61,911 nucleotides of DNA, from the NCBI GenBank assembly GCA_002398105.1, contig DHCD01000010.1, positions 55,683-117,593 on the forward strand. Reading direction: 5' to 3'. The DNA is from Syntrophomonas sp. UBA4911 (lineage in GTDB: Bacteria; Bacillota; Syntrophomonadia; Syntrophomonadales; Syntrophomonadaceae). The notes under the pieces were generated by a model, which made no database searches, was not told the origin of the DNA, and saw nothing but the letters and a program-made list of their open reading frames with translations. Both the position numbers and the translations under genes were made by a program. Below are positions 1,540 to 57,754 of the stretch, one piece after another (position 1 is the stretch's first letter; each line of letters opens with the position of its first letter).

Positions 1540-2070
1540 TCATTCCGCGATTAATTTTAAATCGTGAATACAGCGCAGTGCTAAATCCTGGTATAATTTC
1601 ACGCCCATTTGGTTATAAATTCTATTTTGCTCATCCAGATCTTTGACTATCCGGGCAGGATTACCCATGGCTACTTTGGATTTAGGTACTGTGCGGCCGG
1701 GAGGAAGCACGCTGCCCGCGGCCAGAAGACTATCGCTTTCCAGTTCACAGCCGGAAGATATTATGGCGCCCATGCCGACCGTAACATTTTGCTGCACCAG
1801 GCAGGGACCGTGAACTATGGCGCTATGACCTATAAGGCTGTTTTCTTCAATTATGGCTATGGTTTCCGGTTCCGAGTGAATAATACAGTTTTCCTGGATA
1901 TTGGTGCCGTCGCCGATAACGATTTTCCCATAATCACCCCTTATTACTGCGCCGGCGCCAATGTAGCATCGCTCTCCCAGTTCCACTTCACCGATTATTA
2001 CCGCCTGCGGATGAATAAAACAGTCTTTTCCTATCACGGGACGCTTTCCCTCAAACTCATAAATGGGCAT
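1540..2070 (-). CDS. Gamma carbonic anhydrase family / hexapeptide-repeat protein
   Basis: Left-handed beta-helix hexapeptide repeats (IHPQAVIIGEVELGERCYIGAGAVIRGD...). About 176 aa, typical of the YrdA/PaaY family. Confidence 0.8.
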   Translation of the reverse strand: MPIYEFEGKRPVIGKDCFIHPQAVIIGEVELGERCYIGAGAVIRGDYGKIVIGDGTNIQENCIIHSEPETIAIIEENSLIGHSAIVHGPCLVQQNVTVGMGAIISSGCELESDSLLAAGSVLPPGRTVPKSKVAMGNPARIVKDLDEQNRIYNQMGVKLYQDLALRCIHDLKLIAE

Positions 2071-3913: not shown

Positions 3914-5548
3914 TTGAGTTTGGTCTATATTGATGGGAATGATCTGGTCAGAAGCATTAAAGCAGGTTGTATCAAGCTGGAACATAATCGGGACAGTGTG
4001 GATCTGCTGAACGTGTTCCCGGTACCTGATGGCGATACCGGAACCAATATGTATCTGACCTTGTTGTCGGCCGTAAAGGAAGGCGAAAAAAATCTTAATC
4101 AACCTCTCAGTAAGGTGGCCAGAGCTGTTTCGATGGGGTCTTTGATGGGAGCCCGGGGTAATTCCGGGGTTATTCTCTCCCAGATTTTCCGAGGCTTCGC
4201 CCGTACCTTGGAAGGTAAGGAAAAAGCCGGGGCGATGGATCTGGCATTGGCTCTCAAATCAGGGTCGCAGACTGCCTATGAGGCAGTTATGAAGCCGGTA
4301 GAGGGCACTATACTTACGGTAATACGAGAGATAGCCCTGGCTTGTGAAAACGAGGCACGCAAGGACAGTGATATTGTTGCCACCCTGTTGGCAGGTATAG
4401 CTACCGGTTACAGTACTCTGGAAAAGACTCCGTCTTTATTGCCTATTTTAAAAGAGGCAGGAGTAGTGGATGCAGGGGGGCAGGGGCTGATCTATTTCCT
4501 GGAGGGCGTAGTAGAAGGACTGGCTCAGGAAAAGGAGATAGAATTAAGCGGTTATCGGGAAAAGATGGCTCCAGCGGCAGGAGAGAGAGTAAATAAGGAG
4601 GATATTAAGCTTGAGTTTCAGTATTGTACCGAGGTTCTGATCAAGGGCGGGGATATGACCGTGGACGATATCAAGGATCACCTCCGGCCATTGGGAGACT
4701 CTATGCTGGTAGTTGGAGACGAGGAACTGGTTAAGGTTCATATCCATTCCAACCACCCCGGTAAGGTGCTGGAAACCTGTCTGCAATGGGGGCAATTAAG
4801 CGATATCAAGGTGAATAATATGCTGGAAGAGGTTCATGAGCATATTAACAACTGGGATAACATTTCCCTGGCGGTAAACTCCAACCCGGCCAAAAAGTTG
4901 GGCCTGGTTGCGGTAGGTGTAGGCGAGGGGATTATAGAGGTACTGAAAAGCCTGGGTGTTGATGAGGTGGTTGAAGGCGGACAGACTATGAATCCCAGTA
5001 CTGAAGATCTGTTGAATGCCTGCAACGAGGTTAATGCCGAGTCAGTTATAATTTTTCCCAATAACAGCAATATAATCATGGCAGCGCAGCAGGTAGTGGA
5101 ACTCTGTGATAAACAGGTGATGGTGGTTCCCAGTAAATCTGTAATGCAGGCCATCACCGCGCTGATAGCCTATGATCCGGCAGGAGAGATAGCCGAAATT
5201 GCCGCCGCCATGATAGAAGAGATGGAAGAGGTTAAATATGCCGAAGTAACCTATGCCGTTAGGAATTCAACCATAAATGGACTCACTATAAACGAGGGCG
5301 ACATCATTGGTATCTTAGGTGATGAGATTACGGTCACCAGCAGCAGTCCGGAAGATGCTCTTCTGAAGCTGTTGGAGTTAATGGTGACCAAAGACAGCAG
5401 TCTGATTACCTTTTTCTATGGCGATGATACTGATGAGGCTGATGCTGTCAAGATCAGGGATGTCATAGCGGAACACTACTCTGATTGTGATGTGGAATAC
5501 CATTATGGCGGCCAACCCCATTATAGTTATCTGGTATCGGTAGAGTAA
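3914..5548 (+). CDS. DAK2 domain-containing protein (YloV family)
   Basis: TTG start after a GGGGAGG RBS. DAK2 motif VPDGDTGTNM plus a DegV-like C-terminal half. Synteny asp23-yloV-recG. Confidence 0.85.
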   Translation: MSLVYIDGNDLVRSIKAGCIKLEHNRDSVDLLNVFPVPDGDTGTNMYLTLLSAVKEGEKNLNQPLSKVARAVSMGSLMGARGNSGVILSQIFRGFARTLEGKEKAGAMDLALALKSGSQTAYEAVMKPVEGTILTVIREIALACENEARKDSDIVATLLAGIATGYSTLEKTPSLLPILKEAGVVDAGGQGLIYFLEGVVEGLAQEKEIELSGYREKMAPAAGERVNKEDIKLEFQYCTEVLIKGGDMTVDDIKDHLRPLGDSMLVVGDEELVKVHIHSNHPGKVLETCLQWGQLSDIKVNNMLEEVHEHINNWDNISLAVNSNPAKKLGLVAVGVGEGIIEVLKSLGVDEVVEGGQTMNPSTEDLLNACNEVNAESVIIFPNNSNIIMAAQQVVELCDKQVMVVPSKSVMQAITALIAYDPAGEIAEIAAAMIEEMEEVKYAEVTYAVRNSTINGLTINEGDIIGILGDEITVTSSSPEDALLKLLELMVTKDSSLITFFYGDDTDEADAVKIRDVIAEHYSDCDVEYHYGGQPHYSYLVSVE

Positions 5549-8253: not shown

Positions 8254-8285
8254 AACAAGCGGATTTTATATATCCGCTTGTTTTC
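8254..8285 (+). terminator. Intrinsic terminator after the SASP gene
   Basis: AACAAGCGGA-ttttatata-TCCGCTTGTT followed by TTT. Confidence 0.65.
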
Positions 8286-8288
8286 ATA

Positions 8289-8434
8289 TTAACCGCCCAT
8301 GACCGGAGCGCCGTGACCAAGAATGAAAATAGACCTACGGTTTCGCTAGTTTTTGACGCGGCATTCAGGGAATTTAGAAGGAAGAACGCGGAAGAGACTT
8401 AATAAATTCCGCGTCTTTTCCATAAATCTACGTC
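8289..8434 (+). repeat. Dispersed intergenic repeat, copy A
   Basis: The reverse complement of 41566-41738 aligns over the whole element. In the 59-nt core CCTACGGTTTCGCTAGTTTTTGACGCGGCATTCAGGGAATTTAGAAGGAAGAACGCGGA, the copies differ by 3 substitutions and 1 indel. Confidence 0.75.
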
Positions 8435-11307: not shown

Positions 11308-12554
11308 TCTTGCCAACGGAGGCTTACCAACATCATCAGCCCAATTAGAATCAAACCCAAAAGCAGACAGGAAAGGGAAACATGCCAGGCGTCAAAGGAA
11401 TACAGGACTTTATGATAAGGAAAAGTAAAAACCCCGATGGCCGAGCGGGGAGCGATAACGGCCTTGTAGGTGAAGACGGTTATGGTTAATGATAAGATCA
11501 TTTGAATAAGGCGGGAGAGAAGATAAAAAGATAAACGTACCGGTGTGCCTGCCATGACACTCATGACTTGGGCAATAACGGAGAAACCGCTGAAGGCCAG
11601 GACAGCACTGACTGCCAGCAGCTTATATATTGGGTCGGCCTGGGCGGCCAGGACTATGGTCCGGGCACCGAGGGTAATTTCGAACATGCCCATACCGAGA
11701 CCATAGGCCACTTGATAAGGAAGAGACAGGAATTCGAACATACAGGAAAACATGGCGGCTACCGTATCCATTATCCCCCAGACAGCCAGCATACGGGTTA
11801 AGACGGAAAAGATTATAACAAAGCCTGCAATAGCCAAAATGTTGTTCAGGCTATTTTTTATGGCGTCGCCCAGTAAGGTCCCCATACCCTGAGGTTTATG
11901 GTATTGCAGGAAAGCCTGCCAGGCCTCGGCCCATCGGGACTGCTGGGATCGGGTTATGCGGTTGCCGGAGGGAGACGCACGGAACCGCCACATAATACCC
12001 AGCAGGATGTTGGACAGGTAATGGGAAAAAGCCAGCAGGTATCCCATTATAGGGGAGGCAAACATGCCTACCCCTACAGCTCCAAGTATAAAAAGAGGGC
12101 TGCAATTATTAGTGAAAGAAACCAGCCTTTCAGTTTCGTCAGCAGTCAGCAGATTCTCGTCATATAGTTTACGGCTCAGGACAGCGCCGATAGGAAATCC
12201 GGAAGTAAACCCCATCACCACTACCAGAGAACTGCAGCCCGGCAGACGGAAAACAGGTCTCATTACCGGCTCCAGGATAATGCCTAGAAAATTTACAAAA
12301 CCCAGATTGACCATAAGTTCGGCTACAATAAAAAAAGGCAGTAAAGCCGGCAAGAGAACTGAAAACCAGAGTTTACAGCCCATCCCGGCAGCAGTAACCG
12401 TTTCCTGCGGGTTAAGAATCATGAAAGCGGTTAGAATTAATATTATAATGAGAAAAAAGATTCGGGAATAATTGCCCAATCCAAACAACTCCAATTCGAG
12501 AGACGTGAAAAGTAAAAGGGTGAGGGGCAGAGTAATTACGCCCTCACCTTTCAC
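11301..12554 (-). CDS. ylbJ: Sporulation integral membrane protein YlbJ
   Basis: 417 aa, polytopic membrane protein (nucleoside-recognition/Gate-like). Conserved ylb synteny next to the patatin gene. Confidence 0.78.
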   Translation of the reverse strand: MKGEGVITLPLTLLLFTSLELELFGLGNYSRIFFLIIILILTAFMILNPQETVTAAGMGCKLWFSVLLPALLPFFIVAELMVNLGFVNFLGIILEPVMRPVFRLPGCSSLVVVMGFTSGFPIGAVLSRKLYDENLLTADETERLVSFTNNCSPLFILGAVGVGMFASPIMGYLLAFSHYLSNILLGIMWRFRASPSGNRITRSQQSRWAEAWQAFLQYHKPQGMGTLLGDAIKNSLNNILAIAGFVIIFSVLTRMLAVWGIMDTVAAMFSCMFEFLSLPYQVAYGLGMGMFEITLGARTIVLAAQADPIYKLLAVSAVLAFSGFSVIAQVMSVMAGTPVRLSFYLLSRLIQMILSLTITVFTYKAVIAPRSAIGVFTFPYHKVLYSFDAWHVSLSCLLLGLILIGLMMLVSLRWQDQ

Positions 12555-33218: not shown

Positions 33219-33701
33219 ATGGCGCCGGTTATCTCATTTGTGGGCAGGCATAACTCGGGTAAGACTACCCTGCTGGCGGGTATAGTCACTATATTGGAAC
33301 AGCAGGGAATCAGAACGGCTGTGGTTAAACATGCCAGCAGCGGACTGGATTTAATGGGGAAAAGGGATTCGGATCAATTGTTTCAAGCGGGGGCCAGCAT
33401 GGTTTATGCTGTCTCAACCGGATTATCATTGATTTACCGCCGGGAAAATGATATTAATCTGGAGGCCATATGCCATAAAATCGGCAGTGACTTTGACCTG
33501 ATAATAAGCGAAGGTTTTAAAAAAGAGGCGTTTCCCAAGATAGAGGTGCTGAGAAAGGATATCAGCACTTCTACTCTGGATATAGATAACGTAGTAGCAC
33601 GGGTTACGGATTTCCCGCTTGAGTCCTCAGTGCCTGGTTTTAGTTTCGATCAACGGCAGGATATTGCCGACTATATCCGCAAATATTTTGGCTTAAAATA
33701 A
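33219..33701 (+). CDS. mobB: Molybdopterin-guanine dinucleotide biosynthesis adapter protein
   Basis: 160 aa. P-loop GRHNSGKTTL, plus VKH and EGFK motifs typical of MobB. Confidence 0.85.
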   Translation: MAPVISFVGRHNSGKTTLLAGIVTILEQQGIRTAVVKHASSGLDLMGKRDSDQLFQAGASMVYAVSTGLSLIYRRENDINLEAICHKIGSDFDLIISEGFKKEAFPKIEVLRKDISTSTLDIDNVVARVTDFPLESSVPGFSFDQRQDIADYIRKYFGLK

Positions 33702-33790: not shown

Positions 33791-34564
33791 TTAGTGCATT
33801 TGATTATTCTTTTTCGCCTGTTCTGCCAGCCAGCGTTCGGCAGCGAAATTTAACGGGAGGGTTCGCATTTCCTCCCAGAGATAATCCTGCACCGATACCA
33901 TCCGTGAGTCAATCTCTTTGAGGTAATGCCCGCAGACTTGGCAGACTGCCATTTCAATACCTGGAAATTCTTCGCTCTTAAGATACATTTGCTGCTTGGC
34001 ATCTTCACTTCCGCAATGCAGACATCCGACCCGTTTTACCGTCCATTCGAAGCTGCACGATGTACAGTACATCGTTCTGTGACCATGGGGTTGACTCAGA
34101 ACCGCCAGGGTAGCGGCTTCACCGCAAACCGGACAGATGGAACTGGCGGTGGGATCATCTGAAGCTATATATCCTCGGTCAAGAGCCGGAACACCCTGCA
34201 TCTTGGCCTTCTTACCGGCCAGTTGGGCCACCCCGCTTATGGACATCTGCAGACGGGATATCATTTCCGGATTCATTACGATCTGACCGTCGCGAAATTG
34301 CTTCCATAGTTTCCTAAGCTCAGCATCGGGTATTTGAACTTCGGCAATGAGGTTTAATCGTTGCCAAACTTCAATAATTGCAGCTTCCGGCAGATCCATG
34401 AGAGGCAAATACGGAGGCTTTTTACCCCAAGGAAGCGCCTCCAGCCAATAAGAACCGCGTTCTTGCTGCCATTGTTCAACTTCCTTTTGCAGAAGTTTAT
34501 ACATCTTATAGAATTGATTTTCTGCTTCACCTGCAATGGCTGTTTTACTTTTGCTGAGTTCCAT
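33791..34564 (-). CDS. fdhE: Formate dehydrogenase accessory protein FdhE
   Basis: Four CxxC pairs (CPVCG, CTSCS, CLHCG, CQVCG) in FdhE spacing. Operon position after the FDH subunits. Confidence 0.85.
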   Translation of the reverse strand: MELSKSKTAIAGEAENQFYKMYKLLQKEVEQWQQERGSYWLEALPWGKKPPYLPLMDLPEAAIIEVWQRLNLIAEVQIPDAELRKLWKQFRDGQIVMNPEMISRLQMSISGVAQLAGKKAKMQGVPALDRGYIASDDPTASSICPVCGEAATLAVLSQPHGHRTMYCTSCSFEWTVKRVGCLHCGSEDAKQQMYLKSEEFPGIEMAVCQVCGHYLKEIDSRMVSVQDYLWEEMRTLPLNFAAERWLAEQAKKNNQMH

Positions 34565-34619
34565 TTAGATTCTCCCCTTAGTTTTTTTGCTTTTGGGCTA
34601 AACTAACATGGTTCAGAGA

Positions 34620-35279
34620 TTACGTATTCTTGTTTTCTACTTTGACCTGATTGTACCACTTTTCATAATGCTCATAGGCAAATTTTTCCGGGACATAGCC
34701 GTTAAACATTCCCCCCAGGGCCTGATTGGAGTCGGGATGTAAAACGCCCAGATAAAAATGGGCCAGGAAAACCGCCATTATCAATAAGGCAAATCCGGAA
34801 TGGGCGACATAAGCCCATTGCACCAACCACTGGGGCATGGAAGAGGCAAACCACATGATATATCCGCTTATAGCAATACAGAGCAAACCGGTGATCATAA
34901 GCATTGAGTTTAACTTCTCCCCGCCGTTGAACTTGCCTTGGGGAGGGAAGGGCTTGTGTCCGCCAAAGAATTCTATCGGGAAATTTTTGGCGTGGGCAAA
35001 ATCGTCTTTGGTAAATTTAAAGCTGGACTTAGCCCAGGACCGCAGCTCGCGTCCGCTTGCTCCCAAGAGGAAGAAGACGAATATGGATATGGTAAATATG
35101 GCTGCCGCCCACCGATGAATATCGCGGGAGATTTGGATGCCGCCAAAGATGTTGGCAATAGGTTGCAACCAAGAATAAACTAGCGCCGCGCCGGTTAATC
35201 CCAACAATATGAAACAAACGGCGTGGATCCAGTGAAAAATACGGGTACCTGCAGTAAAACGAAATAACTTGCCCTTCAT
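34620..35279 (-). CDS. fdnI: Formate dehydrogenase cytochrome b (gamma) subunit
   Basis: Four TM helices with conserved His residues (RIFHWIHA..., HRWAA, HSGFAL...H), as in the FdnI/cytochrome b561 family. Confidence 0.8.
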   Translation of the reverse strand: MKGKLFRFTAGTRIFHWIHAVCFILLGLTGAALVYSWLQPIANIFGGIQISRDIHRWAAAIFTISIFVFFLLGASGRELRSWAKSSFKFTKDDFAHAKNFPIEFFGGHKPFPPQGKFNGGEKLNSMLMITGLLCIAISGYIMWFASSMPQWLVQWAYVAHSGFALLIMAVFLAHFYLGVLHPDSNQALGGMFNGYVPEKFAYEHYEKWYNQVKVENKNT

Positions 35280-35281
35280 AG

Positions 35282-36097
35282 CTATTGACCTCCTTTCTTA
35301 TCCTGGGATTCCGCTACTTCTTTGCCGCGATTACGGTAATTACCCAGGGCGAAGTTGGCAAAAACCCCGCCGACAACGGCTATAGCCGCACCGCCAATCG
35401 CAATCCCGCCCAGCGGATGGACCAGGTCTTTCCAAAGGGTCAGGGACAACGGAATGGAAGCATTAGAAGGAACTCCATAAATTTCCGGCCGATCCAGGAG
35501 AAGATAGAGATAGGTGGTGCCGCCCATAATGGCATCACCATAAAGCTGAGCTTTAGGATACTCTTTTTTCACCTCATAAAGGCGGTTCTGGGCCAGTTGT
35601 TCCATCTCGTCACGATCGCCAAAATGAAGGGCGCCAGGCTGGCAGGTGCTGACGCAGGCCGGCTTGAGCCCGTTTTCAATGCGGTCGATGCAGCCCGTAC
35701 ATTTGAAGGATTTATTCACGGTTTCGTCCACCTTGGGAACGCTCCAGGGGCAGTTAGCCGTGCAGTAACCGCAGCCGATGCACTTATCGTGGTCAATCAG
35801 CGTATATCCCGATTCGGTCTTATAAATCGCCTTGGAGGGACAGGCTTTCATACAAGCGGCATCAGCGCAATGATAGCACTGGTGCTTGAACATCAGCCAT
35901 TGCATTTTGCCGTTCTCATATTTTTCATGCATGCTGATATAGGTCCAGGTATGGGGCGTAGTCGCTGCCTGAGACTGATAGCTGGTGATGAGCTGAGTCT
36001 TCTCGGCCTCAAGGTCGTTCCAGGCTTTGCAGGCCACTGAACAGGCTCTGCAACCGGTGCATAATGAAGTATCAACAAAAACCATTTTTTCTGTCAT
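35282..36097 (-). CDS. fdnH: Formate dehydrogenase iron-sulfur (beta) subunit
   Basis: Multiple 4Fe-4S motifs (CTGCRACSVACK, CYHCADAACMKACP, CIGCGYCTANCP, CTGCIDR...C) and a C-terminal TM anchor. The ATG at 36097 follows GGAGGG. The ORF track extends to 36130. Confidence 0.88.
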   Translation of the reverse strand: MTEKMVFVDTSLCTGCRACSVACKAWNDLEAEKTQLITSYQSQAATTPHTWTYISMHEKYENGKMQWLMFKHQCYHCADAACMKACPSKAIYKTESGYTLIDHDKCIGCGYCTANCPWSVPKVDETVNKSFKCTGCIDRIENGLKPACVSTCQPGALHFGDRDEMEQLAQNRLYEVKKEYPKAQLYGDAIMGGTTYLYLLLDRPEIYGVPSNASIPLSLTLWKDLVHPLGGIAIGGAAIAVVGGVFANFALGNYRNRGKEVAESQDKKGGQ

Positions 36098-36099
36098 TG

Positions 36100-39000
36100 T
36101 TAAGCCCTCCTTGCATTGACAAGGCAGCATTTATACTCAGGAGTCCCTGCTCCTGGATCACATGCGTTCATTGTCACATTATTTGTACTGGGGCCGGGAT
36201 TCAAGCTGGCAAAACCCCAGCTCCATGGCATCCCGATGGTCTCCGTATCTACTCCATTGATTTTCAGGGTCTGGATACGATCGGTAACCAGGGCGCGTAC
36301 CGTCAGCTTGCCTCGAATAGAGGATATCTCGACTTTATCCCCTTCTTTGATTCCAAGCTTGTCACCCAGGTTTTTGCTCATCTCTGCAAAGGGTTCGGGC
36401 ATAATCTCGTTCAGCCAGGGAATGTTGCGGGTAATGGCGCCTGCGCAGAAGTGCTCGCAGACCCCGTAGGTAGTGAGAACATAGGGATAATCCTTGGGAT
36501 CGCCAAATTCGGTGGAGACGATTTTCGCACAGGGATTATTCTGCACCTGGGGATGCAGCAGATTGGCGGTTGGGCTTTCAATAGGCTCATAGAATTCAGG
36601 CATCGGCCCATCCACGGTCATACCAGCTCCGCGGGTTGGAACAGCCGCTATGCTGTCAGCCGGAACCGGTGAGGCAGATACCCCGCTGGTGTAGCTGGCG
36701 GTAAATAGCCGGCCCAAGCCCTCCGGATTCATACGGAACGCCTGTTTCCCTTCGGGAGTCTCAGGACCCTTGGTCTTATCTACCACATCAGGGCCGTCAT
36801 TTCCGGTCCATACTCCGGCAACAGGATCCCACCAGATCAGTTTGCGTTGGGGGTCAACCGGCTGACCATTGGCATCGCAAGAAGCACGATTATACAGAAC
36901 GCGGATATTGCCCGGCCAGGCAAAAGCATATTCCTTATTCAGGCCCAGACCGGTGGGATCGGCATTATCCCGGCGATCGGCCAGATTTTTGCCCGGCGGG
37001 GTTACGCCGGCATATATCCAGCAACCGGTGGAAACCGTACCAATCGGTGCATTCAGGTATTCAGCCAGGCTGGCGGTAAGCTGGCCGGTGTTGTCATTAT
37101 AGCCATTGAGTTCCTGCAGCACCTTCAAGGGGCTGGCATGGTGGCCATAGTCCCAGTTGGCATTCAAAATTGGAGCATCCTTGGGATCGGTGCTCCCGGT
37201 ATAAAGTTCGCGCATCTTCTTGAAGATACGATCAATAATATCCAGATCGGGCAGGCAGTCATTGAGCGGTTTCAGCGCAACCTCTTTCCATTGGATCAGG
37301 CGGGAGGAATTGGTCATGGTCCCGGCTTTTTCATAAACAAAGGCCGCCGGCAGGAAGATGACCTCGGTTTGGATTGCCTTGGTATTCAATCCCTCTTCAC
37401 GCCAGAACTGGGCGGTTTCGGTATTGAATATATCAGCCACCACCAGCATCTCCAGCTTGGAAAGACCGCGGGCTACCATCTTACGGTCGGGAATAGAAAC
37501 GGTTGAGTTGGAGCCAAAGTTAAAGAGCAGCTTGAATTGTCCCTTTTCCATCCAGTTGAAGAACTGGGACTGGACCGGCATGTTATTCGGATCGTTCTTG
37601 GGCAGCCAGCCGTAGCCGTAGTCGTTCTCGGCGGTGGCATTTTTGCCGAACCAGGCTTTGAGTAGCGCAACCATCGGTTTATACTGAACGGCGCCGTTTT
37701 TTACCGCAAAATCATGCAAGGTTACCTGGGCATTGGTAGGATAGGGAAGATATCCCGGCAGGTTGGCGTTGAGGTTTGCCATATCGGTCGAACCCTGAAC
37801 ATTGGGCTCGCCGCGTAGGGCCTGGATGCCGCCGCCGGCCTTGCCGACATTGCCTAGCAGCAACTGGATAATGGCATAGCAGCGGATGCCCTGTACACCG
37901 GTGGTATGCTGAGTCATGCCCAGAGCATAGAAAATGTTGCCCGGTTTGGCTGCGGCAAATGTATCAGCTATATCCTTGATCTTCGCTTGGGGTATGCCGG
38001 TGATCTTTTCGGCTACTTCGAAGCTATATCTGGAATAGTGGGCTTTGAGTTTCTGGAATACGCAGTCCGGATCATCCAGACTGTCTGCCTTGATGGGCTT
38101 CTTTTCTTCATCAAGCTGGTAGGCCCAGGTAGCATAATCATATTTCTTTTTGCTGGCATCGAAACCTGAGAACAAGCCGTCTTCAAATTTGAAATCTTTG
38201 CTGATCTTCAGCAGCGCATTGGTAAAGTTCAGAACATAGGGCTCATCATAGAGCTTCTGCTCAATATAGTAATTAATCATGGCCCCTAAATAGGCAATAT
38301 CGGTTCCCGGACGAATCTGGGCAAAGATATCCGCTTTGGCTGCAGTACGGGTGAAGCGGGGATCGACCACAATTATCCTGGCGCCTTTAGCCTTGGCGCG
38401 ATTGACCCATTTCATGGCAATGGGATGATTCTCCGCACAGTTGCTGCCGGCAATCAGGAAGCATTGGGAATTCATCATATCCTGCCAGGAATTAGTCATA
38501 GCGCCGCGTCCGAATGAAGGTGACAAACTAGCCACCGTGGGAGCATGTCAGATACGGGCCTGATGTTCGTGGAACGGTGTGCCGATCAGGCGAGCAAATT
38601 TTGTCAACAGGTAAGATTCTTCATTGTCAACCTCAGCCGAGCCAATCATGGCAAGTCCCTCGGCCCGGTTGGCCGGAACAGTTTTCTTTTCTCCGGTTTT
38701 GGCGTCGGTTATCTCGTCAGTTTTCTTCCAGGTTTTTTCCCGGATTTCTACGGTCTTCTTGGCTATACGCTCAATAGCCTCATCCCAGGAAAGTTCTTTC
38801 CACTCAGTAGCTCCTGGGGCGCGATACAGCGGTGTTTTCGGACGGTCCGGAGAATAGGCCACCTGCTCAAGGCTGGCTGCTTTGGGGCAAAGACCCCCTT
38901 CATTGATGGGATTGTCCGGGTTGCCTTCCAAGTGGACCAGTTTTCCGTCTTTAACATGCAGTAGCAAACCGCATCCACCTGAACAGAAGTGACAGATACT

Positions 39001-39138
39001 GGGTATCTTCGTACAGCCCGAAAGCTTCAAAGCATACCCTTTGGCTTCCGCTGCTTCAAGGTCAAATCCCAAGCCGGATGCAAGTGCGGCAATTGAAAGA
39101 CCCGAAAGCTTCAGAAAACCACGACGAGTTAGATTCAT
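36100..39138 (-). CDS. fdnG: Formate dehydrogenase catalytic (alpha) subunit, selenocysteine-containing, Tat-exported
   Basis: Track ORFs 38548-39168 and 36100-38535 are one gene. They join through an in-frame TGA at 38548-38550, reading ...HEHQARI-U-HAPTVASLSPSFGRGAMTNSW, which matches the E. coli FdnG Sec site (..ARVUHGPTVASLAPTFGRGAMTNHW). Twin-arginine signal MNLTRRGFLKLSG. N-terminal 4Fe-4S Cys motif (ICHFCSGGCG). Confidence 0.9.
38490..38547 (-). promoter_or_regulatory. Expected SECIS window downstream of the UGA (candidate hairpin 38519-38536)
   Basis: In the mRNA, 11 nt after the UGA: GGUGGC-uaguuu-GUCACC, 6 bp including one G-U pair. This is short for a SECIS, so it is only a candidate. 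Confidence 0.3.
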
Positions 39139-39180
39139 CCTCTCTTCCTCCCCTCGAGTGCATAACACCCTCTCTATAAT

Positions 39181-39237
39181 AATTATTTATGACGAGATAC
39201 CATAAAACAATTATTTATAATTAAGATATCATAAACC
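39181..39237. repeat. Imperfect tandem direct repeat (28 + 29 bp) upstream of fdnG
   Basis: AATTATTTATGACGAGATACCATAAAAC / AATTATTTATAATTAAGATATCATAAACC. About 22 of 29 positions are identical. Lies 43-100 bp upstream of the fdnG ATG. Confidence 0.5.
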
Positions 39238-39448
39238 CCTATCCCTGTCATTAAAATAAATAATTACTATTGAGCGATTTTGGCCTCACAGCAGTTTTGA
39301 TATAGACTGTGGAGCAGACATTGGACCTCTTGAATCATCAAAACCTCAATCTGCAGAATACTGATATGAAAAAGTATTAGCGGCTGTTCCCATATATCTG
39401 TTTGATTTAATTTCCACCCTGTGTTAGACTAAAAATAATTAAATCAAA

Positions 39449-39542
39449 TTCTCCGAGCTTTTAAGCCTAAAGTCAAAGGCCATGGTTTAGGAGCCTGGGT
39501 TCGAGGGGAAACACTCGAGCCTCCCCTATTGTGGAAAGGAGC
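39449..39542 (+). promoter_or_regulatory. Moco (molybdenum cofactor) riboswitch aptamer, copy 1
   Basis: 5' CUCCGAGC, a variable hairpin, CUGGGU, hairpin UCGAG-gggaaaca-CUCGA, GCCUCCCC, then 3' GGAAAGGAG with GGAG pairing back to the 5' CUCC. Matches the Moco RNA motif as I recall it. Sits in a Moco gene neighbourhood. Confidence 0.7.
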
Positions 39543-39559
39543 AGCATCAGATTTGTCGT

Positions 39560-39605
39560 AGACAGATGCTATATGTCTTTGCACATAAGGATCTGTCTTT
39601 TTTTT
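39560..39605 (+). terminator. Intrinsic terminator (expression platform of Moco riboswitch 1)
   Basis: AGACAGAT...ATCTGTCT stem with the T-run completing 8 T. Confidence 0.7.
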
Positions 39606-39617
39606 AACTTAATACTG

Positions 39618-39710
39618 TTCTCCAAGCCTCTGGACCTGAAGAGTTATGGTCCCCAGGCCTATGGGTATAGCTGGAAACGGTTATGCCTCCCCGTATTTTT
39701 GGAAAGGAGA
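39618..39710 (+). promoter_or_regulatory. Moco riboswitch aptamer, copy 2
   Basis: 5' UCUCCAAGC, hairpin CUGGACC..GGUCC(CC)AG, CUAUGGGU, a hairpin with a GGAAAC loop, GCCUCCCC, then 3' GGAAAGGAGA (P1 is UCUCC/GGAGA). Same architecture as copy 1, with different helix sequences. Confidence 0.7.
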
Positions 39711-39753
39711 CCTAATGTGGCTTATAACTGTTACTTATAAGCCAGGGAGTGGG

Positions 39754-39784
39754 TTGTGTCCTTTTCAGGAACACAATTTTTTTT
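39754..39784 (+). terminator. Intrinsic terminator (expression platform of Moco riboswitch 2)
   Basis: TTGTGTCC-ttttca-GGAACACAA followed by 8 T. Confidence 0.7.
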
Positions 39785-39831
39785 GGTAATTAGCTTTTAA
39801 GCTTTTACATCTAAATCTTTTCTTCCCATTT

Positions 39832-39860
39832 CCCGCTTACTAACAAGCGGGTTCTTTTTT
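39832..39860 (+). terminator. Third plus-strand intrinsic terminator facing the 3' end of moeA
   Basis: CCCGCTT-actaac-AAGCGGG followed by TTCTTTTTT. There is no U-run in the minus-strand reading, so it is plus-oriented. Confidence 0.65.
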
Positions 39861-39949
39861 AGCTCTTTTAGCTTCCCCGTTCTGTTTTCCGGCCTTACTT
39901 TTAAATATCACCTTCACTCCCCGTAAGGATAACCTTCCGCTTAATAAAT

Positions 39950-41149
39950 TCAGCATAGTTGGGCTCTTACCATATCTCCCGCTGCCCCCTGCCCGGCCTG
40001 GAGGTCCAGTAGCAAAGAAATATTTCTGATGGTGGTATTTCCTTTGCTTATAGGTTGGGCGTAAGCGCATCCCTGTTTAATGATCATTTCCCCCCGGTAT
40101 AGGCTGCGACCCGGCCTAATATGCTTTATCGGACCACCTAGTTGTATTTCGAACCATTCCCGGGTAGAGAACAGGTCTCCTTTCAGTTTCAGCAGGGCCG
40201 GCTTAATTAAGGCTTCAAATAACAAACCGGCAGCATAACAATTGCCAGGCAGGTTATACAAAAGTTTGCCGTTAAAAAGCGCGGCAGATGTTTCTTTACC
40301 CGGAATAATATTTATTCCTCTGAAGAGAGGTCTGGCGTTTAAGCATTCAAATGCGTTGTAAACCAGGTCGTAAACTCCTTTACCGGTTCCTCCGCTGATG
40401 ATTATCATATCGGAGACCAGCGCCGCCCGCTCTATTTCATCCCCAATTGCCTGCAGGTCATCTTCAATAATAGAATCTGACAATAATGGTATGGCGCCGG
40501 TACGGGCTATTTTACAAGATAGCAGACTTCGATTGCTGTTATATATACGCCCCGTTTTGACCGGGGCCCCGGGCAAAAGCAATTCGCTCCCGGTGTTGAT
40601 AACATATATACGGGGAACCTTATGAACTAAGATCTTTTCCATCCCGCAGGCAGCTATTCTTTCCAAAATTTCTGCGTTCAGAACCTGTCCTTGGGCTGCC
40701 ACTTTATCTCCCGCTTTTAATTCTTGGCCTGCCCTTTGAATATTCTCGCCCTGCTCATAGCCGCCGTTGACAATAATAAATGTTCCGTGGATTTGGACAT
40801 CTTCCTGCTTAATAACTGCGGCGCCGCCTTCAGGAAGTAAAGCGCCCGTCATTATTCGGTATGTTTCCCCAATTTTGATCGGCCTGCTCTCTATTGAACC
40901 TGCTTTGATAGTGGCAGTTACCTTTAAAGTCAGCGGGGCGCCTGTTTTCAGTTTTTGCATATCCGCCCGGCCAATTACGTAACCATCCATTGAAGAACGA
41001 TCAAAATTGGGTACATCAATTAAACTGGTTATATTTTCCGCATTCACTCTCATGAAGGCATCATCAATATGCAGGTACTCGCTGTCAAGTGCCTGCATAT
41101 TTTCGCAGCTGATAGCAACAGCTTCTTCTAAACTCTTATATACCGACAA
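39950..41149 (-). CDS. moeA: Molybdopterin molybdotransferase (MoeA paralogue 1)
   Basis: MoeA_N motif FDRSSMDGYV, MoCF_biosynth core (NTGSEL...IIISGGTGKGVYD) and the MoeA_C domain. TTG start after a GAGGCGAGGG RBS. Confidence 0.88.
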   Translation of the reverse strand: MSVYKSLEEAVAISCENMQALDSEYLHIDDAFMRVNAENITSLIDVPNFDRSSMDGYVIGRADMQKLKTGAPLTLKVTATIKAGSIESRPIKIGETYRIMTGALLPEGGAAVIKQEDVQIHGTFIIVNGGYEQGENIQRAGQELKAGDKVAAQGQVLNAEILERIAACGMEKILVHKVPRIYVINTGSELLLPGAPVKTGRIYNSNRSLLSCKIARTGAIPLLSDSIIEDDLQAIGDEIERAALVSDMIIISGGTGKGVYDLVYNAFECLNARPLFRGINIIPGKETSAALFNGKLLYNLPGNCYAAGLLFEALIKPALLKLKGDLFSTREWFEIQLGGPIKHIRPGRSLYRGEMIIKQGCAYAQPISKGNTTIRNISLLLDLQAGQGAAGDMVRAQLC

Positions 41150-41231
41150 TTTCCCTCGCCTCTTTACATATTGGGATAGGTAGTATCCGCCGATTATTTA
41201 GCCTGGAGAATAGTAATCATATGCTCTTTAT

Positions 41232-41278
41232 TTCACATAAAATAAAACCAGCCTGGCGGGAGAGGCGCCAGGCTGGTT
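41232..41278 (-). terminator. Strong intrinsic terminator inside the moeA (minus) leader
   Basis: ACCAGCCTGGCG / CGCCAGGCTGGT, a 12-bp perfect stem, followed on the minus strand by UUUUAUUUUAUG. Lies about 85 nt upstream of the moeA start. Confidence 0.7.
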
Positions 41279-41299
41279 AAACAAGCACATAAAAGCTGC

Positions 41300-41405
41300 A
41301 AATACAGTTAATTTCATCCTTTCTACCTTAAGAACCCGGCAGTTTCCCGCCGCATCCATAGCTTAAAGGTCTGCGGGTAATACTGGCAAGTCCTTGAGAC
41401 CAGAA
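41300..41405 (-). promoter_or_regulatory. Structured leader upstream of moeA with partial Moco-aptamer resemblance (candidate riboswitch variant)
   Basis: The minus-strand RNA contains UCUCAAGG..., then CUAUGGAU, hairpin GCGGC-gggaaac-UGCCG, CUUAAGG and GAAAGGA. This parallels CUAUGGGU, the GGAAAC hairpin and GGAAAGGA of copies 1 and 2, but it lacks GCCUCCCC. Confidence 0.3.
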
Positions 41406-41565
41406 AATCAAACCATATATTTGCTATTATTCTATACAAATCTATAAATTCCTTCTAAATGACATATTTACTCTTACTGCTCCGGTTAATAAGTGAATAG
41501 ACGCCCTTTTGAGGACAACTGATGCTCGTTATACTCGCAATTAAAGGTGCAGATCACGCAGATTA

Positions 41566-41738
41566 ACGCAGATTTATTAGACGCGGAAACCGCGGAATCT
41601 TTCAAGGAAGAACGCGGGTTTTACTAAAGTTTTCCTCCGCGTTCTTCCCTATAAATTCCCTGAATTCCGCGTCAAAAAACTAGCGAAACCGTAGGATTAT
41701 CTTCATTCTTGTTTGCAGCCTCCGGCCATTGGGGTTAA
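41566..41738 (-). repeat. Dispersed intergenic repeat, copy B (inverted relative to copy A)
   Basis: Its reverse complement aligns with 8289-8434. It carries a longer internal segment containing a perfect 12-bp hairpin, GGAAGAACGCGG...CCGCGTTCTTCC. Confidence 0.75.
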
Positions 41739-41846
41739 ATCAATATTATAGCCGCCGGTCCGCAATAGAGAGCAAACGAATACCATAGTTCCTCTGCAGT
41801 ATATCGGCCCAAAAGTCAATAGGCAAGATGAAAAAGCCTTGTCTAT

Positions 41847-41875
41847 TTGGCCTTCTCCGGTACCTGCAGTATAAT
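41847..41875 (+). promoter_or_regulatory. Sigma-A-type promoter upstream of the moeA relic and moeA paralogue 2
   Basis: TTGGCC, a 17-nt spacer, then TATAAT. Confidence 0.45.
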
Positions 41876-41884
41876 GAACAATAG

Positions 41885-42039
41885 CAAACGGTTTATGAAA
41901 ATGACCGCCGCATGGCGGTACCGCTGCTGGGAAAATCAGCCCTGATGAGTATTCTGTCGCTGGCTGATGCCCATATTCATATCGCCTATGAAAAACAAGG
42001 CATAAACAAGATGAAAAAGTTACCGCCTACATTTTTTAA
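41885..42039 (+). pseudogene. 3'-terminal relic of a MoeA-type gene, with a frameshift
   Basis: One frame reads ..YENDRRMAVPLLGKSALMSILSLADAHIHIAYEKQGINK. After a 1-nt shift it continues DEKVTAYIF-stop. Together these resemble the MoeA_C terminus (..aVPllGKSg.i.sl..AdG.i.ip....Gi.kGe.V.v.lf). No N-terminal part lies upstream. Confidence 0.4.
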
Positions 42040-42045
42040 TACGGA

Positions 42046-43284
42046 GTGAAAAATTTGTCTTGTCAAATCGAAGTAAGCCTGGAAAGAGCAGTTGAACTTT
42101 GCTGTGCGCAGGCGCATCCACTAAATACAGAATCTATAGTACTGGAAGCGGCGTTAAACCGGGTGGCAGCCCTGGAAGTGCCGTCTCCCATCCAGGTGCC
42201 AACTTTCAGCCGTTCCCAGATGGACGGTTTTACCTTGACCGGGTCTGATTTACTGCGTCTCGGGGCCGGGGCCTGCCTGGAACTGCAAGTAGCCGCCACA
42301 GTGCCCGCCGGATGGCAGGAAACGGTGCGGTTTTTTCCGGGGCAGACCGTAAGCATCATGACCGGTGCTATGATTCCGGGTAATACCGCTGCCATCGTAA
42401 AGCAGGAGGATGTAGAGAATAAAGGGGATTATATAAAGTTGAGCGGTTCACCGGTTCAGGGTCAATACATTGATCCTCCCGGATGTGAGATTGAAGCGGG
42501 AGAAACCATAATCGGTACCGGACAGGAGATAAACCCGGGAAGCATTGAAAGACTGGCTGCGGCCGGCCTTACCCGGGTAACTGTCTATACCATACCCCGG
42601 GTTTACATAATCGGTTGCGGCAGTGAACTCTGTTTACCCGGAAAGGTTCTGCCGGAAGGGAAGATTTATCATAGCCACCGTCATTATATGCTGGCTAAAG
42701 TCCAGACGGAAAACTGTAAAGGTATTCTGGGCGAAGGAGAAGTAGTAGACGATTTGGGATTGATTACCGAGGAAATAAGGAAAGGGCTTGGGGAGGGAGA
42801 CCTCTTGATAATCAGCGGGGGCACGGCTCAGGGCAAATATGATTTGGTGGCGGATGCTCTCCGGCAATTGGGGGCGGACTTCCTGTTTCGCAGCATTGCA
42901 TCCAAACCCGGCCGCAATGTCAGTTGTTCATCATTAGAAGGCTGCCTGGTATTTAACCTGCCCGGCCGTCCTTCAGCGGGTGGAATCATGTTTGACTTAT
43001 TACTGGCCCCGGTCCTGCGGAAGATAAGGGGATCAACTGATTGTGGCCAGCGCTGGCTAAAACTGAGATTATCTGAAAATATCGTCGGCAAGGGCGAATT
43101 AAGAAGCTTTCGCCGAGGTGAACTGGTAGCAGATGAACCGGCCCTGCTGGCTCGCCCCTTAGCTAAGCATGAAAGCGGCAGGGGGAAAATCCCCCTGCTG
43201 TTGGATATTGAACCGGGCCGGAGTAAAAAAGGCGATATCGTAAGAGCGCTGTTGCTTAATAGGGAGACATGGGACTGGATATAA
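42046..43284 (+). CDS. moeA: Molybdopterin molybdotransferase (MoeA paralogue 2)
   Basis: FSRSQMDGFTL, GSEL...LIISGGTAQGKYD and the MoeA_C domain. The start is uncertain: GTG at 42046, or TTG at 42055 which lies 8 nt after GGAG. Confidence 0.85.
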   Translation: MKNLSCQIEVSLERAVELCCAQAHPLNTESIVLEAALNRVAALEVPSPIQVPTFSRSQMDGFTLTGSDLLRLGAGACLELQVAATVPAGWQETVRFFPGQTVSIMTGAMIPGNTAAIVKQEDVENKGDYIKLSGSPVQGQYIDPPGCEIEAGETIIGTGQEINPGSIERLAAAGLTRVTVYTIPRVYIIGCGSELCLPGKVLPEGKIYHSHRHYMLAKVQTENCKGILGEGEVVDDLGLITEEIRKGLGEGDLLIISGGTAQGKYDLVADALRQLGADFLFRSIASKPGRNVSCSSLEGCLVFNLPGRPSAGGIMFDLLLAPVLRKIRGSTDCGQRWLKLRLSENIVGKGELRSFRRGELVADEPALLARPLAKHESGRGKIPLLLDIEPGRSKKGDIVRALLLNRETWDWI

Positions 43285-50773: not shown

Positions 50774-50810
50774 TTAAACAATATTTCAAATGCCATGAAA
50801 AAGTAAAGTA

Positions 50811-51062
50811 GTTGCGTGGAGTTATACAGAGAAGAGATGTCACCGGCTGTAAGCATCTCTATAACAAAGCCCGATGAAGTTCACTTTGGAGCACCCGGCT
50901 GAAACGAATGCAAGTAGGTCGTGGCGGAACTCCCGCCGTTAAAAGGGAGGGGATATCGGATAAACCTGTATCTTTTACTAAGCGGGCCTGATTAAGGCAA
51001 TTTGGGTGGTACCGCGGGTAAGCGACAAGCTTCTCGTCCCATAGGGATGTGAAGCTTTTTTT
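50811..51062 (+). promoter_or_regulatory. T-box riboswitch, probable Phe (UUC) specifier
   Basis: K-turn-like base (UGCGUGGAG..UGGAGCA), AGAGA box, specifier-loop pattern GAAG-UUC-A-C, T-box sequence AAUUUGGGUGGUACCGCGG (50999-51017), CUCGUCCC, and a 14-bp terminator (51027-51057) followed by a T-run. Confidence 0.8.
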
Positions 51063-51082
51063 ATGGATGAGTGGGGTTTTAG

Positions 51083-51180
51083 CCTGTATCCTTATTGAGT
51101 GACTGCAAGGTAAACTGGGTGGTACCGCGGGAAGTGTTTATAAACCTCTCGTCCCATAGGGACGAGAGGTTTATATTTTA
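51083..51180 (+). promoter_or_regulatory. Second T-box 3' module (stem III-like, T-box sequence, terminator) lacking its own Stem I
   Basis: CCUGUAUC...AAGG.AA..UGGGUGGUACCGCGGG...CUCGUCCCAUAGGGA repeats the first module with a 118-nt period. Its own 12-bp perfect terminator is AACCTCTCGTCC/GGACGAGAGGTT, followed by UAUAUUUUA. Confidence 0.6.
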
Positions 51181-57543: not shown

Positions 57544-57754
57544 AGCAAAAGTAAAAACCTTTAAAAGTTAATCCCTGCTGTGTACGTGTGAATTGCCGTT
57601 AAGTTTTTGCCAACACCAAAAACTAGGGAGCCTTGTCTCTGCGTGAGGCTGTAGACCCACATCTTTTAGTGGGAAACATTAATCACGAAGGAGGGCACCC
57701 ACCTGCGATGCAGGTTTAAACTACGGCGCCACGGCTCGGTGGGGTTTTTGTTTG
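57544..57754 (+). ncRNA. ssrS: Probable 6S RNA
   Basis: A non-coding interval of about 200 nt with its own promoter and a terminal stem followed by a U-run (GGUGGGGUUUUUGUUUG). The 5' AAACCU can pair with the 3' AGGUUU. The position between aspS and tcdA (yrvM) matches the B. subtilis 6S-1 (bsrA) locus as I recall it. Confidence 0.55.

Follow-up and report, generated by a model that had tools for sequence, protein, structure and literature searches.

What does a riboswitch control when no gene follows it? This question is raised by a 61,911-nt stretch of DNA from Syntrophomonas sp. UBA4911 (GenBank assembly GCA_002398105.1, contig DHCD01000010.1, positions 55,683 to 117,593 of the forward strand), which we call the window and whose own coordinates are used throughout. 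On its plus strand, between the formate dehydrogenase (FDH) gene fdnG and the cofactor gene moeA1, lies a cassette of two riboswitches of the molybdenum cofactor (Moco) family, RS1 and RS2, and three intrinsic terminators, T1 to T3, and this cassette runs against the 3' end of moeA1. The answer that we favour, with about even confidence, is that the cassette was stranded by a local rearrangement, that it now makes only short terminated RNAs, and that the neighbouring fdnGHI-fdhE operon is without riboswitch control.

Two riboswitches, three terminators and no downstream gene

The whole window was scanned on both strands with Rfam cmscan, in which the gathering score of the Moco family (RF01055) is 36 bits. 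Four matches exceeded their gathering thresholds and two of them were RF01055, both on the plus strand: RS1 at 39439..39558 (71.8 bits, E 2e-15) and RS2 at 39608..39725 (69.0 bits, E 1e-14). The two matches are full-length (model positions 1-135 of 135) and score about twice the gathering score, with P1-to-P1 cores at 39449-39542 for RS1 and about 39620-39709 for RS2. The original prediction, made from the letters alone, had recognised two Moco-type aptamers and had proposed this search on both strands as their check; two plus-strand matches above the gathering score and no Moco match on the minus strand bear it out. A permissive rescan of 38900-42200 on both strands (E<=5) gave no further Moco-like element, and the minus-strand matches found there, 41247-41281 and 41573-41678, are weak, terminator- or hairpin-like and located to the right of moeA1.

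RS1 and RS2 were aligned with 15 Moco aptamers from related loci. In these 17 sequences, 12 of the 25 predicted pairs covary, with changes on both sides that keep the pairing, which is matched with the earlier observation that the helices of the two copies differ in sequence and yet stay complementary. There are 29 invariant columns, the invariant core elements (CUCC, the GGAAAC loop, GCCUCC and GGAAAGGAG) are present, and the Rfam model alignments of RS1 and RS2 contain few non-canonical pairs. Stem P3 (model positions ~58-72) is deleted in both aptamers alike in those alignments. RS1 and RS2 are genuine and complete members of the P3-less Moco riboswitch class. Variants without P3 made up 58 of the 176 original representatives and were correlated with tungsten-cofactor metabolism (Regulski et al. 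2008, PMC2408646); because of this reported correlation, RS1 and RS2 would belong to the proposed tungsten-cofactor type, a specificity that we infer solely from the absence of P3. Against any other aptamer in the comparison RS1 reaches only 59-69% identity, and therefore it is an old paralog and no recent copy of RS2.

Each aptamer has its own expression platform, for which RNAfold and constrained folding were used. In the RS1 platform (39530..39605, plus strand), UGUGGAAAGG and AGCAUC pair with GAUGCU...GUCUUUGCACA as an antiterminator that competes with T1. T1 is a long interrupted hairpin after RS1 (stem 39560-39598) in which AGACAGAU (39560-39567) pairs with AUCUGUCU (39591-39598), followed by a U8 run that ends at 39605. 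Its formation probability was 0.88-1.00 with P1 enforced and 0.22-0.29 with P1 blocked, the bound and free states being near-isoenergetic (-50.7 vs -50.4 kcal/mol). In the RS2 platform (39697..39784, plus strand), the antiterminator pairs UUUUUGGAAAGGAGACC with GGGUUGUGUCCUUUUCAGGA around a hairpin at 39718-39744 and competes with T2, a bulged hairpin (stem 39754-39776) followed by U8 at 39777-39784. T2 formed with a probability of 0.83-0.85 when P1 was enforced and 0.00 when it was blocked (-61.2 kcal/mol bound vs -62.1 free). When P1 is blocked, its 3' strand (GGAAAGG...) pairs with the 5' half of the terminator. Because in both platforms a terminator and an antiterminator compete and the balance is set by P1, the models predict RS1 and RS2 to be ligand-OFF transcriptional switches, the response to ligand being what we infer. 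The hairpin and T8 run assigned earlier to each aptamer were recovered in these RNAfold structures.

The third terminator is of a different kind. After T2 comes a pyrimidine-rich spacer of 47 nt (39785..39831, plus strand), which is unstructured, holds no open reading frame (ORF) and is included only in transcripts that read through both switches. It is followed by T3 (39832..39860, plus strand), CCCGCUU-ACUAAC-AAGCGGG with the stem at 39832-39851 and then UUCUUUUUU to 39860, 90 nt before the moeA1 stop codon. Folding gave a plain hairpin with no alternative pairing, that is, an unconditional intrinsic terminator, and the terminator scan agreed with the earlier call of a third plus-strand terminator at this place. 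No U-run follows the hairpin on the minus strand, so T3 serves the plus strand only. A decayed third aptamer between T2 and T3 was considered and rejected, as its best local alignment was matched or beaten by 8-9 of 300 shuffles, and the spacer gave no Rfam match at E<=5.

A candidate promoter for the cassette lies at 39402..39439 on the plus strand by consensus match. By direct reading it has -35 TTGATT (39402-39407), a 17-nt spacer and a TGn-extended -10 TAGACT (39425-39430); the consensus scan preferred TTTCCA-17-AATAAT (39411-39439). Under either option, the predicted start (~39437-39447) falls on the 5' edge of the RS1 match. The matches of the promoter scan were not enriched over shuffles, and the cassette promoter is a candidate. 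It is flanked by a perfect 12-bp inverted repeat (39401-39412 / 39437-39448).

No plus-strand ORF of at least 20 aa starts after 39646 and before moeA1, in line with the original prediction that no plus-strand gene follows the switches, and no gene between moeA and fdnG was called on the five same-species contigs shown, including NCBI assembly GCA_002397225.1. As also predicted, moeA1 (41149..39950, minus strand) is convergent with the cassette, and its stop codon at 39950 faces it. It is an intact coding sequence (CDS) with a ribosome-binding site and with Pfam MoeA_N and MoCF_biosynth domains. On the other side the fdnG-fdnH-fdnI-fdhE operon (33791..39168, minus strand) is divergent from the cassette and encodes a selenocysteine-containing FDH.

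Such switches belong to a known class. At least 15 Moco motifs were reported per genome of S. wolfei, among them tandem doublets and a P3-less triplet with terminators after its first two members (PMC2408646), and a later study counted 13 Moco doublets and 2 triplets and described tungsten-cofactor (Wco) tandems with multiple expression platforms (Sherlock et al. 2022, PMC9481103). Because these papers report such tandems, RS1 and RS2 add new members to a class that is known, and their tandem architecture is known as well. The cassette shares with the P3-less 'Tuco/Wco' subclass of RF01055 the conserved core, the helices, the absence of P3, the terminator-type platform and the host genus; like the published tandem arrays it has two aptamers of the same class in series, each with its own intrinsic terminator, which has been proposed to make the response steeper and more 'digital', and as in the S. 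wolfei triplet all its aptamers lack P3. The difference is in position. Moco switches typically stand in the sense 5' leader of genes that make, transport or use the cofactor, whereas the cassette stands in no gene's 5' leader: of the cofactor genes nearest to it, fdnG is divergent from it and moeA convergent with it. Published tandem arrays precede operons and serve a common downstream coding region, but here an unconditional terminator without any ORF follows and then the 3' end of a convergent gene. Our literature search found nothing specific to this Syntrophomonas locus. The literature already contains both tandem P3-less Moco switches from Syntrophomonas and Moco switches in antisense orientation; what is new here is the documented stranding of such a cassette beside its former operon.

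Sense leaders of relatives and scars beside the cassette

Which gene follows the orthologous switch in close relatives was suggested earlier as a check, and we collected the loci around MoeA1 homologs, scanned them with Rfam and mapped the window proteins onto them. The answer is fdnG, with the switch as its sense leader, in 11 related species. These are ten GTDB species representatives (L015-L024) and L098, whose MoeA is 74% identical to the window MoeA1, and six metagenome contigs (L092-L097) show the same. All of them carry fdhE-fdnI-fdnH-fdnG on one strand and moeA divergently, and a single P3-less Moco switch precedes fdnG by 173-414 nt on its own strand. A switch upstream of moeA on the moeA strand, which we had expected in relatives, was rejected, as the switch is on the fdnG strand.

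The RS2 core (39620-39715) is 84-87% identical over 99 nt to the leader switches of L017, L018, L020 and L092-L097, and 81-84% identical over the aligned P1-to-P1 core. Relative to fdnG, RS2 is reversed against these leaders, and moeA is reversed too. The homology of RS2 ends at the edges of the aptamer, and neither its platform nor its flanks can be aligned with the relatives; likewise, the homology of moeA1 to relatives is limited to the CDS and about 20 nt. The cassette and these leaders share their neighbours (fdnG and moeA) and an aptamer core of 84-87% identity, but where the relatives have a single switch with a long multi-hairpin platform, the window has an inverted, doubled arrangement with simple, non-homologous OFF platforms. 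The RS2 aptamer is the ortholog of the sense fdnGHI-fdhE leader switch of relatives. The likely former target of the switch would be the fdn operon on its other side, not moeA, and the layout in the window appears to be the derived state.

In the relatives the fdn leader has a long multi-hairpin platform, in which a conserved GGGCAUAAA...UUUAUGCCC hairpin and a GGAGGCAUUUUU terminator overlap. Its behaviour in constrained folding was inconsistent between loci, ON-like in L015, L016, L020, L023 and L093 and OFF-like in L017, L018, L098 and L024. If it is an ON switch, the FDH operon of these relatives would be activated by its cofactor.

Other related loci have no switch at this place. In Syntrophaceticus (L008, L009, L013) and in L010, L014 and L100, fdnG and moeA are divergent without a switch between them; in S. 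curvata (L006, L007) and L099, mobB-moeA is convergent with fdhE and there is no switch. In L101 the gene context is different and the only Moco switch leads a moaA operon, and L105 (P0005, MoeA 75% identical) has another context and no Moco switch. A Moco switch convergent on moeA was found in none of these loci (L006, L007, L008, L009, L010, L013, L014, L099-L101, L105), and in none of the more than 20 related loci as a whole; the layout is limited to near-identical assemblies of the same species. The T3 hairpin is also confined to the source species among 105 loci.

Sense Moco switches were met elsewhere in the collected loci, at 1699-1819 (-) and 12070-12201 (-) in L008, 12289-12409 (-) in L018 and 4248-4379 (-) in L101. 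They precede a CCG/Fer4 (heterodisulfide-reductase-like) gene pair, moaA operons and a second FDH-like gene, and they confirm the high density of the Moco family in this group.

Over 18 kb the window agrees with five independent assemblies at 99.86-99.99% identity, and all five have the cassette in the same orientation. Because they agree, the arrangement is no assembly artefact. The MoeA1 protein was found on many metagenome contigs and in assembly GCA_002397225.1, and its closest named relatives are in Syntrophomonas curvata (76%) and other Syntrophomonadaceae. Among the same-species assemblies the 780-nt intergenic region varies in the T1 U-run (T8/T7) and at three single-nucleotide polymorphisms (SNPs), too few for a selection test; a population SNP at 39431 lies in the candidate promoter region.

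Comparison with relatives also revealed a rearrangement or deletion scar directly upstream of moeA2 (41767..42045, both strands). In relatives (L102-L104) the moeA2 locus has the order FDH2(-), moeA-PBP fusion(-), full-length moeA(+), moeA2(+), orf364(-), recJ(+). In the window, a remnant of the fusion gene remains at 41767-41838 (minus strand), and the promoter of the deleted full-length moeA is left as a fragment at 41845-41885 (88% identical to L102, with a TTGGCC-17-TATAAT match), which now stands in front of moeA2. The last ~50 residues of the full-length MoeA that precedes moeA2 in relatives remain at 41891-42036 (plus strand; 75-82% identity, one frameshift), so the moeA relic noticed in the original prediction is real and its source gene is known. 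The scars are thus relics of two deleted genes, 1.9 kb from the cassette. The relic has 81% nucleotide identity with L102 and the adjoining intact moeA2 78%; as the relic is no more diverged than the intact gene, the deletions may be recent. That the switch pair once controlled moeA2, with moeA1 inserted later, was rejected: the moeA2 orthologs in L102-L104 stand behind a full-length moeA, and no Moco switch was found anywhere in these moeA2 loci.

The remaining 600 bp of the moeA1-moeA2 gap occur only in the source species. In the gap is one copy of a dispersed intergenic repeat of ~130-150 nt (41590-41745, plus strand), the other being at ~8270-8420 as reverse complement, 33 kb apart and inverted; the copies are 91-92% identical over 83 nt, and the gap copy has an internal palindrome (41574-41679). 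This repeat could be an element like a miniature inverted-repeat transposable element (MITE) or a repetitive extragenic palindrome (REP), and a substrate for inversion. No convincing inverted repeats were found around moeA1. The fdn operon itself is mosaic: FdnG has 91% identity to L020, and for FdnI the identity is 82% to L022 but only 37-60% to the others. Judged from these sequences, the locus is recombination-prone.

A proposed stranded leader and its rivals

If the cassette was stranded, it would descend from the fdn leader switch, and it would have turned around or lost its downstream gene during rearrangements, either by inversion of the leader module together with moeA or because a plus-strand gene that once lay between T2 and T3 was lost. 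Transcription would start at the promoter just upstream of RS1 and would stop at T1 or T2 with the cofactor bound, and otherwise at the unconditional T3. Because T1 and T2 stop the bound state and T3 stops the rest, only short RNAs are expected, and the output of the locus would be non-coding RNAs of about 165, 345 or 420 nt. The fdnGHI-fdhE operon would have escaped riboswitch control, like that of S. curvata and other switch-less relatives, and the cassette would be intact since the stranding is recent, not through a new function. Orphaning is favoured because the orthologous aptamer is a sense fdn leader in 11 species, is inverted here and has deletion relics adjacent. Of the three options offered in the original prediction, the first, orphaning by rearrangement, is the one that these comparative data support.

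Several points speak against stranding. The cassette is intact in all its parts, from the plausible promoter through both aptamers and their balanced platforms to the strong T3, which selection would predict likewise, and without a close sister genome intactness is inseparable from selection. No sister species is present in the databases searched, the next MoeA being 77% identical, and for this reason neither the age of the event nor selection after it is measurable. The cassette is more than a flipped known leader, since the single-switch leaders of relatives contain neither a counterpart of RS1 nor a homolog of the RS2 platform. An unconditional T3 would be lethal to a sense leader and therefore needs a separate explanation; candidate origins are the terminator of a deleted gene or a later insulation. 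RS and moeA are each inverted with their mutual order kept, and a single inversion was rejected, as it is impossible to pass from the relatives' state (fdn minus, RS minus, moeA plus) to that of the window (fdn minus, RS plus, moeA minus) in one step. Stranding would have required at least two events.

The first rival is that the switches gate convergent antisense transcription, so that at low cofactor the read-through interferes with a minus-strand transcript; we consider it unlikely. The target would be the 3' end of moeA1 or an mRNA that reads through from moeA1 to fdnG and whose spacer of 780 nt matches the cassette RNA with full complementarity. The original prediction had raised antisense transcription into moeA, and its geometry stands: the switches are aimed at the 3' end of moeA, which is 240 nt away from T2, and, as in the antisense-acting riboswitches of Listeria (B12/AspocR) and C. 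acetobutylicum (S-box/ubiG), they lie beyond the 3' end of the opposite-strand gene and are directed into it. A consensus scan found no minus-strand intrinsic terminator between the moeA1 stop codon and fdnG, so moeA transcripts probably cross the cassette. In a 2023 computational survey Moco switches were significantly enriched among antisense-oriented riboswitches (24 of 858), and one S. wolfei Moco case is in its tables (PMC9943018). The intact cassette would also fit. The path into the gene speaks against it. Unlike in the known antisense systems, a strong unconditional T3 lies between the switches and moeA, so that read-through into the CDS would need three terminator failures, and the layout is not conserved, being missing from all of the more than 20 related loci. 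For these two reasons antisense control of moeA is less likely than orphaning. The logic is also awkward, as low cofactor would lower a cofactor-insertion enzyme, and antisense RNAs of 165 nt and 420 nt differ little.

It is similarly doubtful that the cassette was co-opted as a cofactor-gated regulatory RNA, in which cofactor shortage gives the longer, T3-ended RNA and this acts on the minus-strand genes. The route would be cis-antisense to the moeA1-fdnG transcript or pairing of the RNA tail with the fdnG ribosome-binding site. If this is true, FDH synthesis would still be cofactor-dependent, by a route other than the ancestral cis leader.

The second of these routes was also weighed as a distinct proposal, a riboswitch-gated small RNA, which we regard as quite improbable. 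The tail of the read-through form (39807-39828) would mask the ribosome-binding site and start codon of fdnG and block synthesis of the apo-enzyme at low cofactor, as a trans replacement for the lost cis control. This tail is unstructured and lies just 5' of the terminator hairpin, and at the fdnG start it can pair with GGAAGAGAGGAU over 12 bp, 2 of them G-U (-23.3 kcal/mol in total), a pairing that ranks 2 of 51 translation-initiation regions in the window. T3 would gain a purpose, and the logic is sensible, with FDH made only when its cofactor is present. However, the same energy was reached in 104 of 2000 composition-matched shuffles (p about 0.05, post hoc), and a pyrimidine-rich tail pairs with any purine-rich ribosome-binding site.

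Still less probable is a phase-variable invertible leader, in which 39377-39895 (promoter, RS1, T1, RS2, T2 and T3) flips between imperfect inverted repeats. The repeats TGATATGAAAAAGTA (39362-39376) and TACTTTTAAATATCA (39896-39910) bracket exactly the whole cassette, and once flipped it would precede fdnG in sense orientation, as the switch of the relatives does. But a 15-nt repeat with 2 mismatches in AT-rich DNA is at chance level, because 13 comparable pairs occur in the same 950 nt. No recombinase gene or domain is among the neighbours, all five assemblies show one orientation (at small population depth), T3 would block the sense leader, and the flipped moeA would be left unexplained. 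It is just as improbable that, as the third option of the original prediction has it, the short terminated RNAs are stand-alone cofactor-binding RNAs, which would buffer or sequester free cofactor: two intact aptamers, a possible promoter and the lack of a coding target would allow it, but no precedent for it is known in this class, the sequence shows no feature that favours it in particular, and the layout is not conserved.

Neighbouring features and what a stranding would mean

The surroundings named in the original prediction (mobB, a Mo/W FDH and two moeA genes) were confirmed. mobB (33219-33701) lies beyond the fdn operon on the left side, the FDH operon contains a selenocysteine codon, and a second gene, moeA2 (42046-43284, plus strand), follows a gap of ~900 bp on the right of moeA1. 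In fdnG an in-frame TGA (38548-38550) within the motif QARI-U-HAPTVA is the selenocysteine codon. The start of fdnG is probably 39138 rather than the longer ORF start at 39168, and its N-terminus carries a twin-arginine (TAT) signal, RRGFLK. An AT-rich motif, AATAATTATTTAT, is present in 3-4 direct and inverted copies in the fdnG promoter-proximal region (39172-39274) and may be an operator for some regulator.

A strong minus-strand intrinsic terminator (41278..41246; 13-bp stem with 9 G-C pairs) is located ~100 nt upstream of the moeA1 start, within a small hydrophobic ORF (29-43 aa; region 41228-41359, minus strand). It may serve moeA1 as a leader or attenuator, or it may have ended an upstream transcript that no longer exists. 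MoeA1 and MoeA2 (39950-41149 and 42046-43284) are only 38% identical, and their divergence may reflect specialisation for Mo versus W. Both paralogs and the whole Syntrophomonadaceae subfamily (P0001-P0064) have no Pfam MoeA_C match at normal length (~400 aa), and this match is present in more distant MoeA homologs.

Two other RNA elements were identified in the window. A T-box leader (RF00230, 108 bits) is at 50786-51177 on the plus strand, and a second copy of its 3' sequence and terminator module occurs ~113 nt downstream (50994-51062 vs 51107-51177), which suggests a duplicated antiterminator/terminator or a degenerate tandem T-box. A 6S RNA (RF00013, 94.5 bits) is at 57569-57749 on the plus strand.

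If the cassette was stranded, it would show what a riboswitch looks like in nature shortly after the loss of its gene, with aptamers, platforms and promoter still intact, with an ancestral target that can be identified from relatives, and with deletion scars next door. It gives a caution for surveys that score convergent riboswitches as 'antisense regulators', as some of them may be by-products of rearrangement. If the cassette is functional, a cis leader would have been converted into a ligand-gated non-coding RNA. The comparison also shows that, among syntrophic butyrate oxidisers, control of the periplasmic selenocysteine FDH operon by a cofactor riboswitch comes and goes from one close relative to another.

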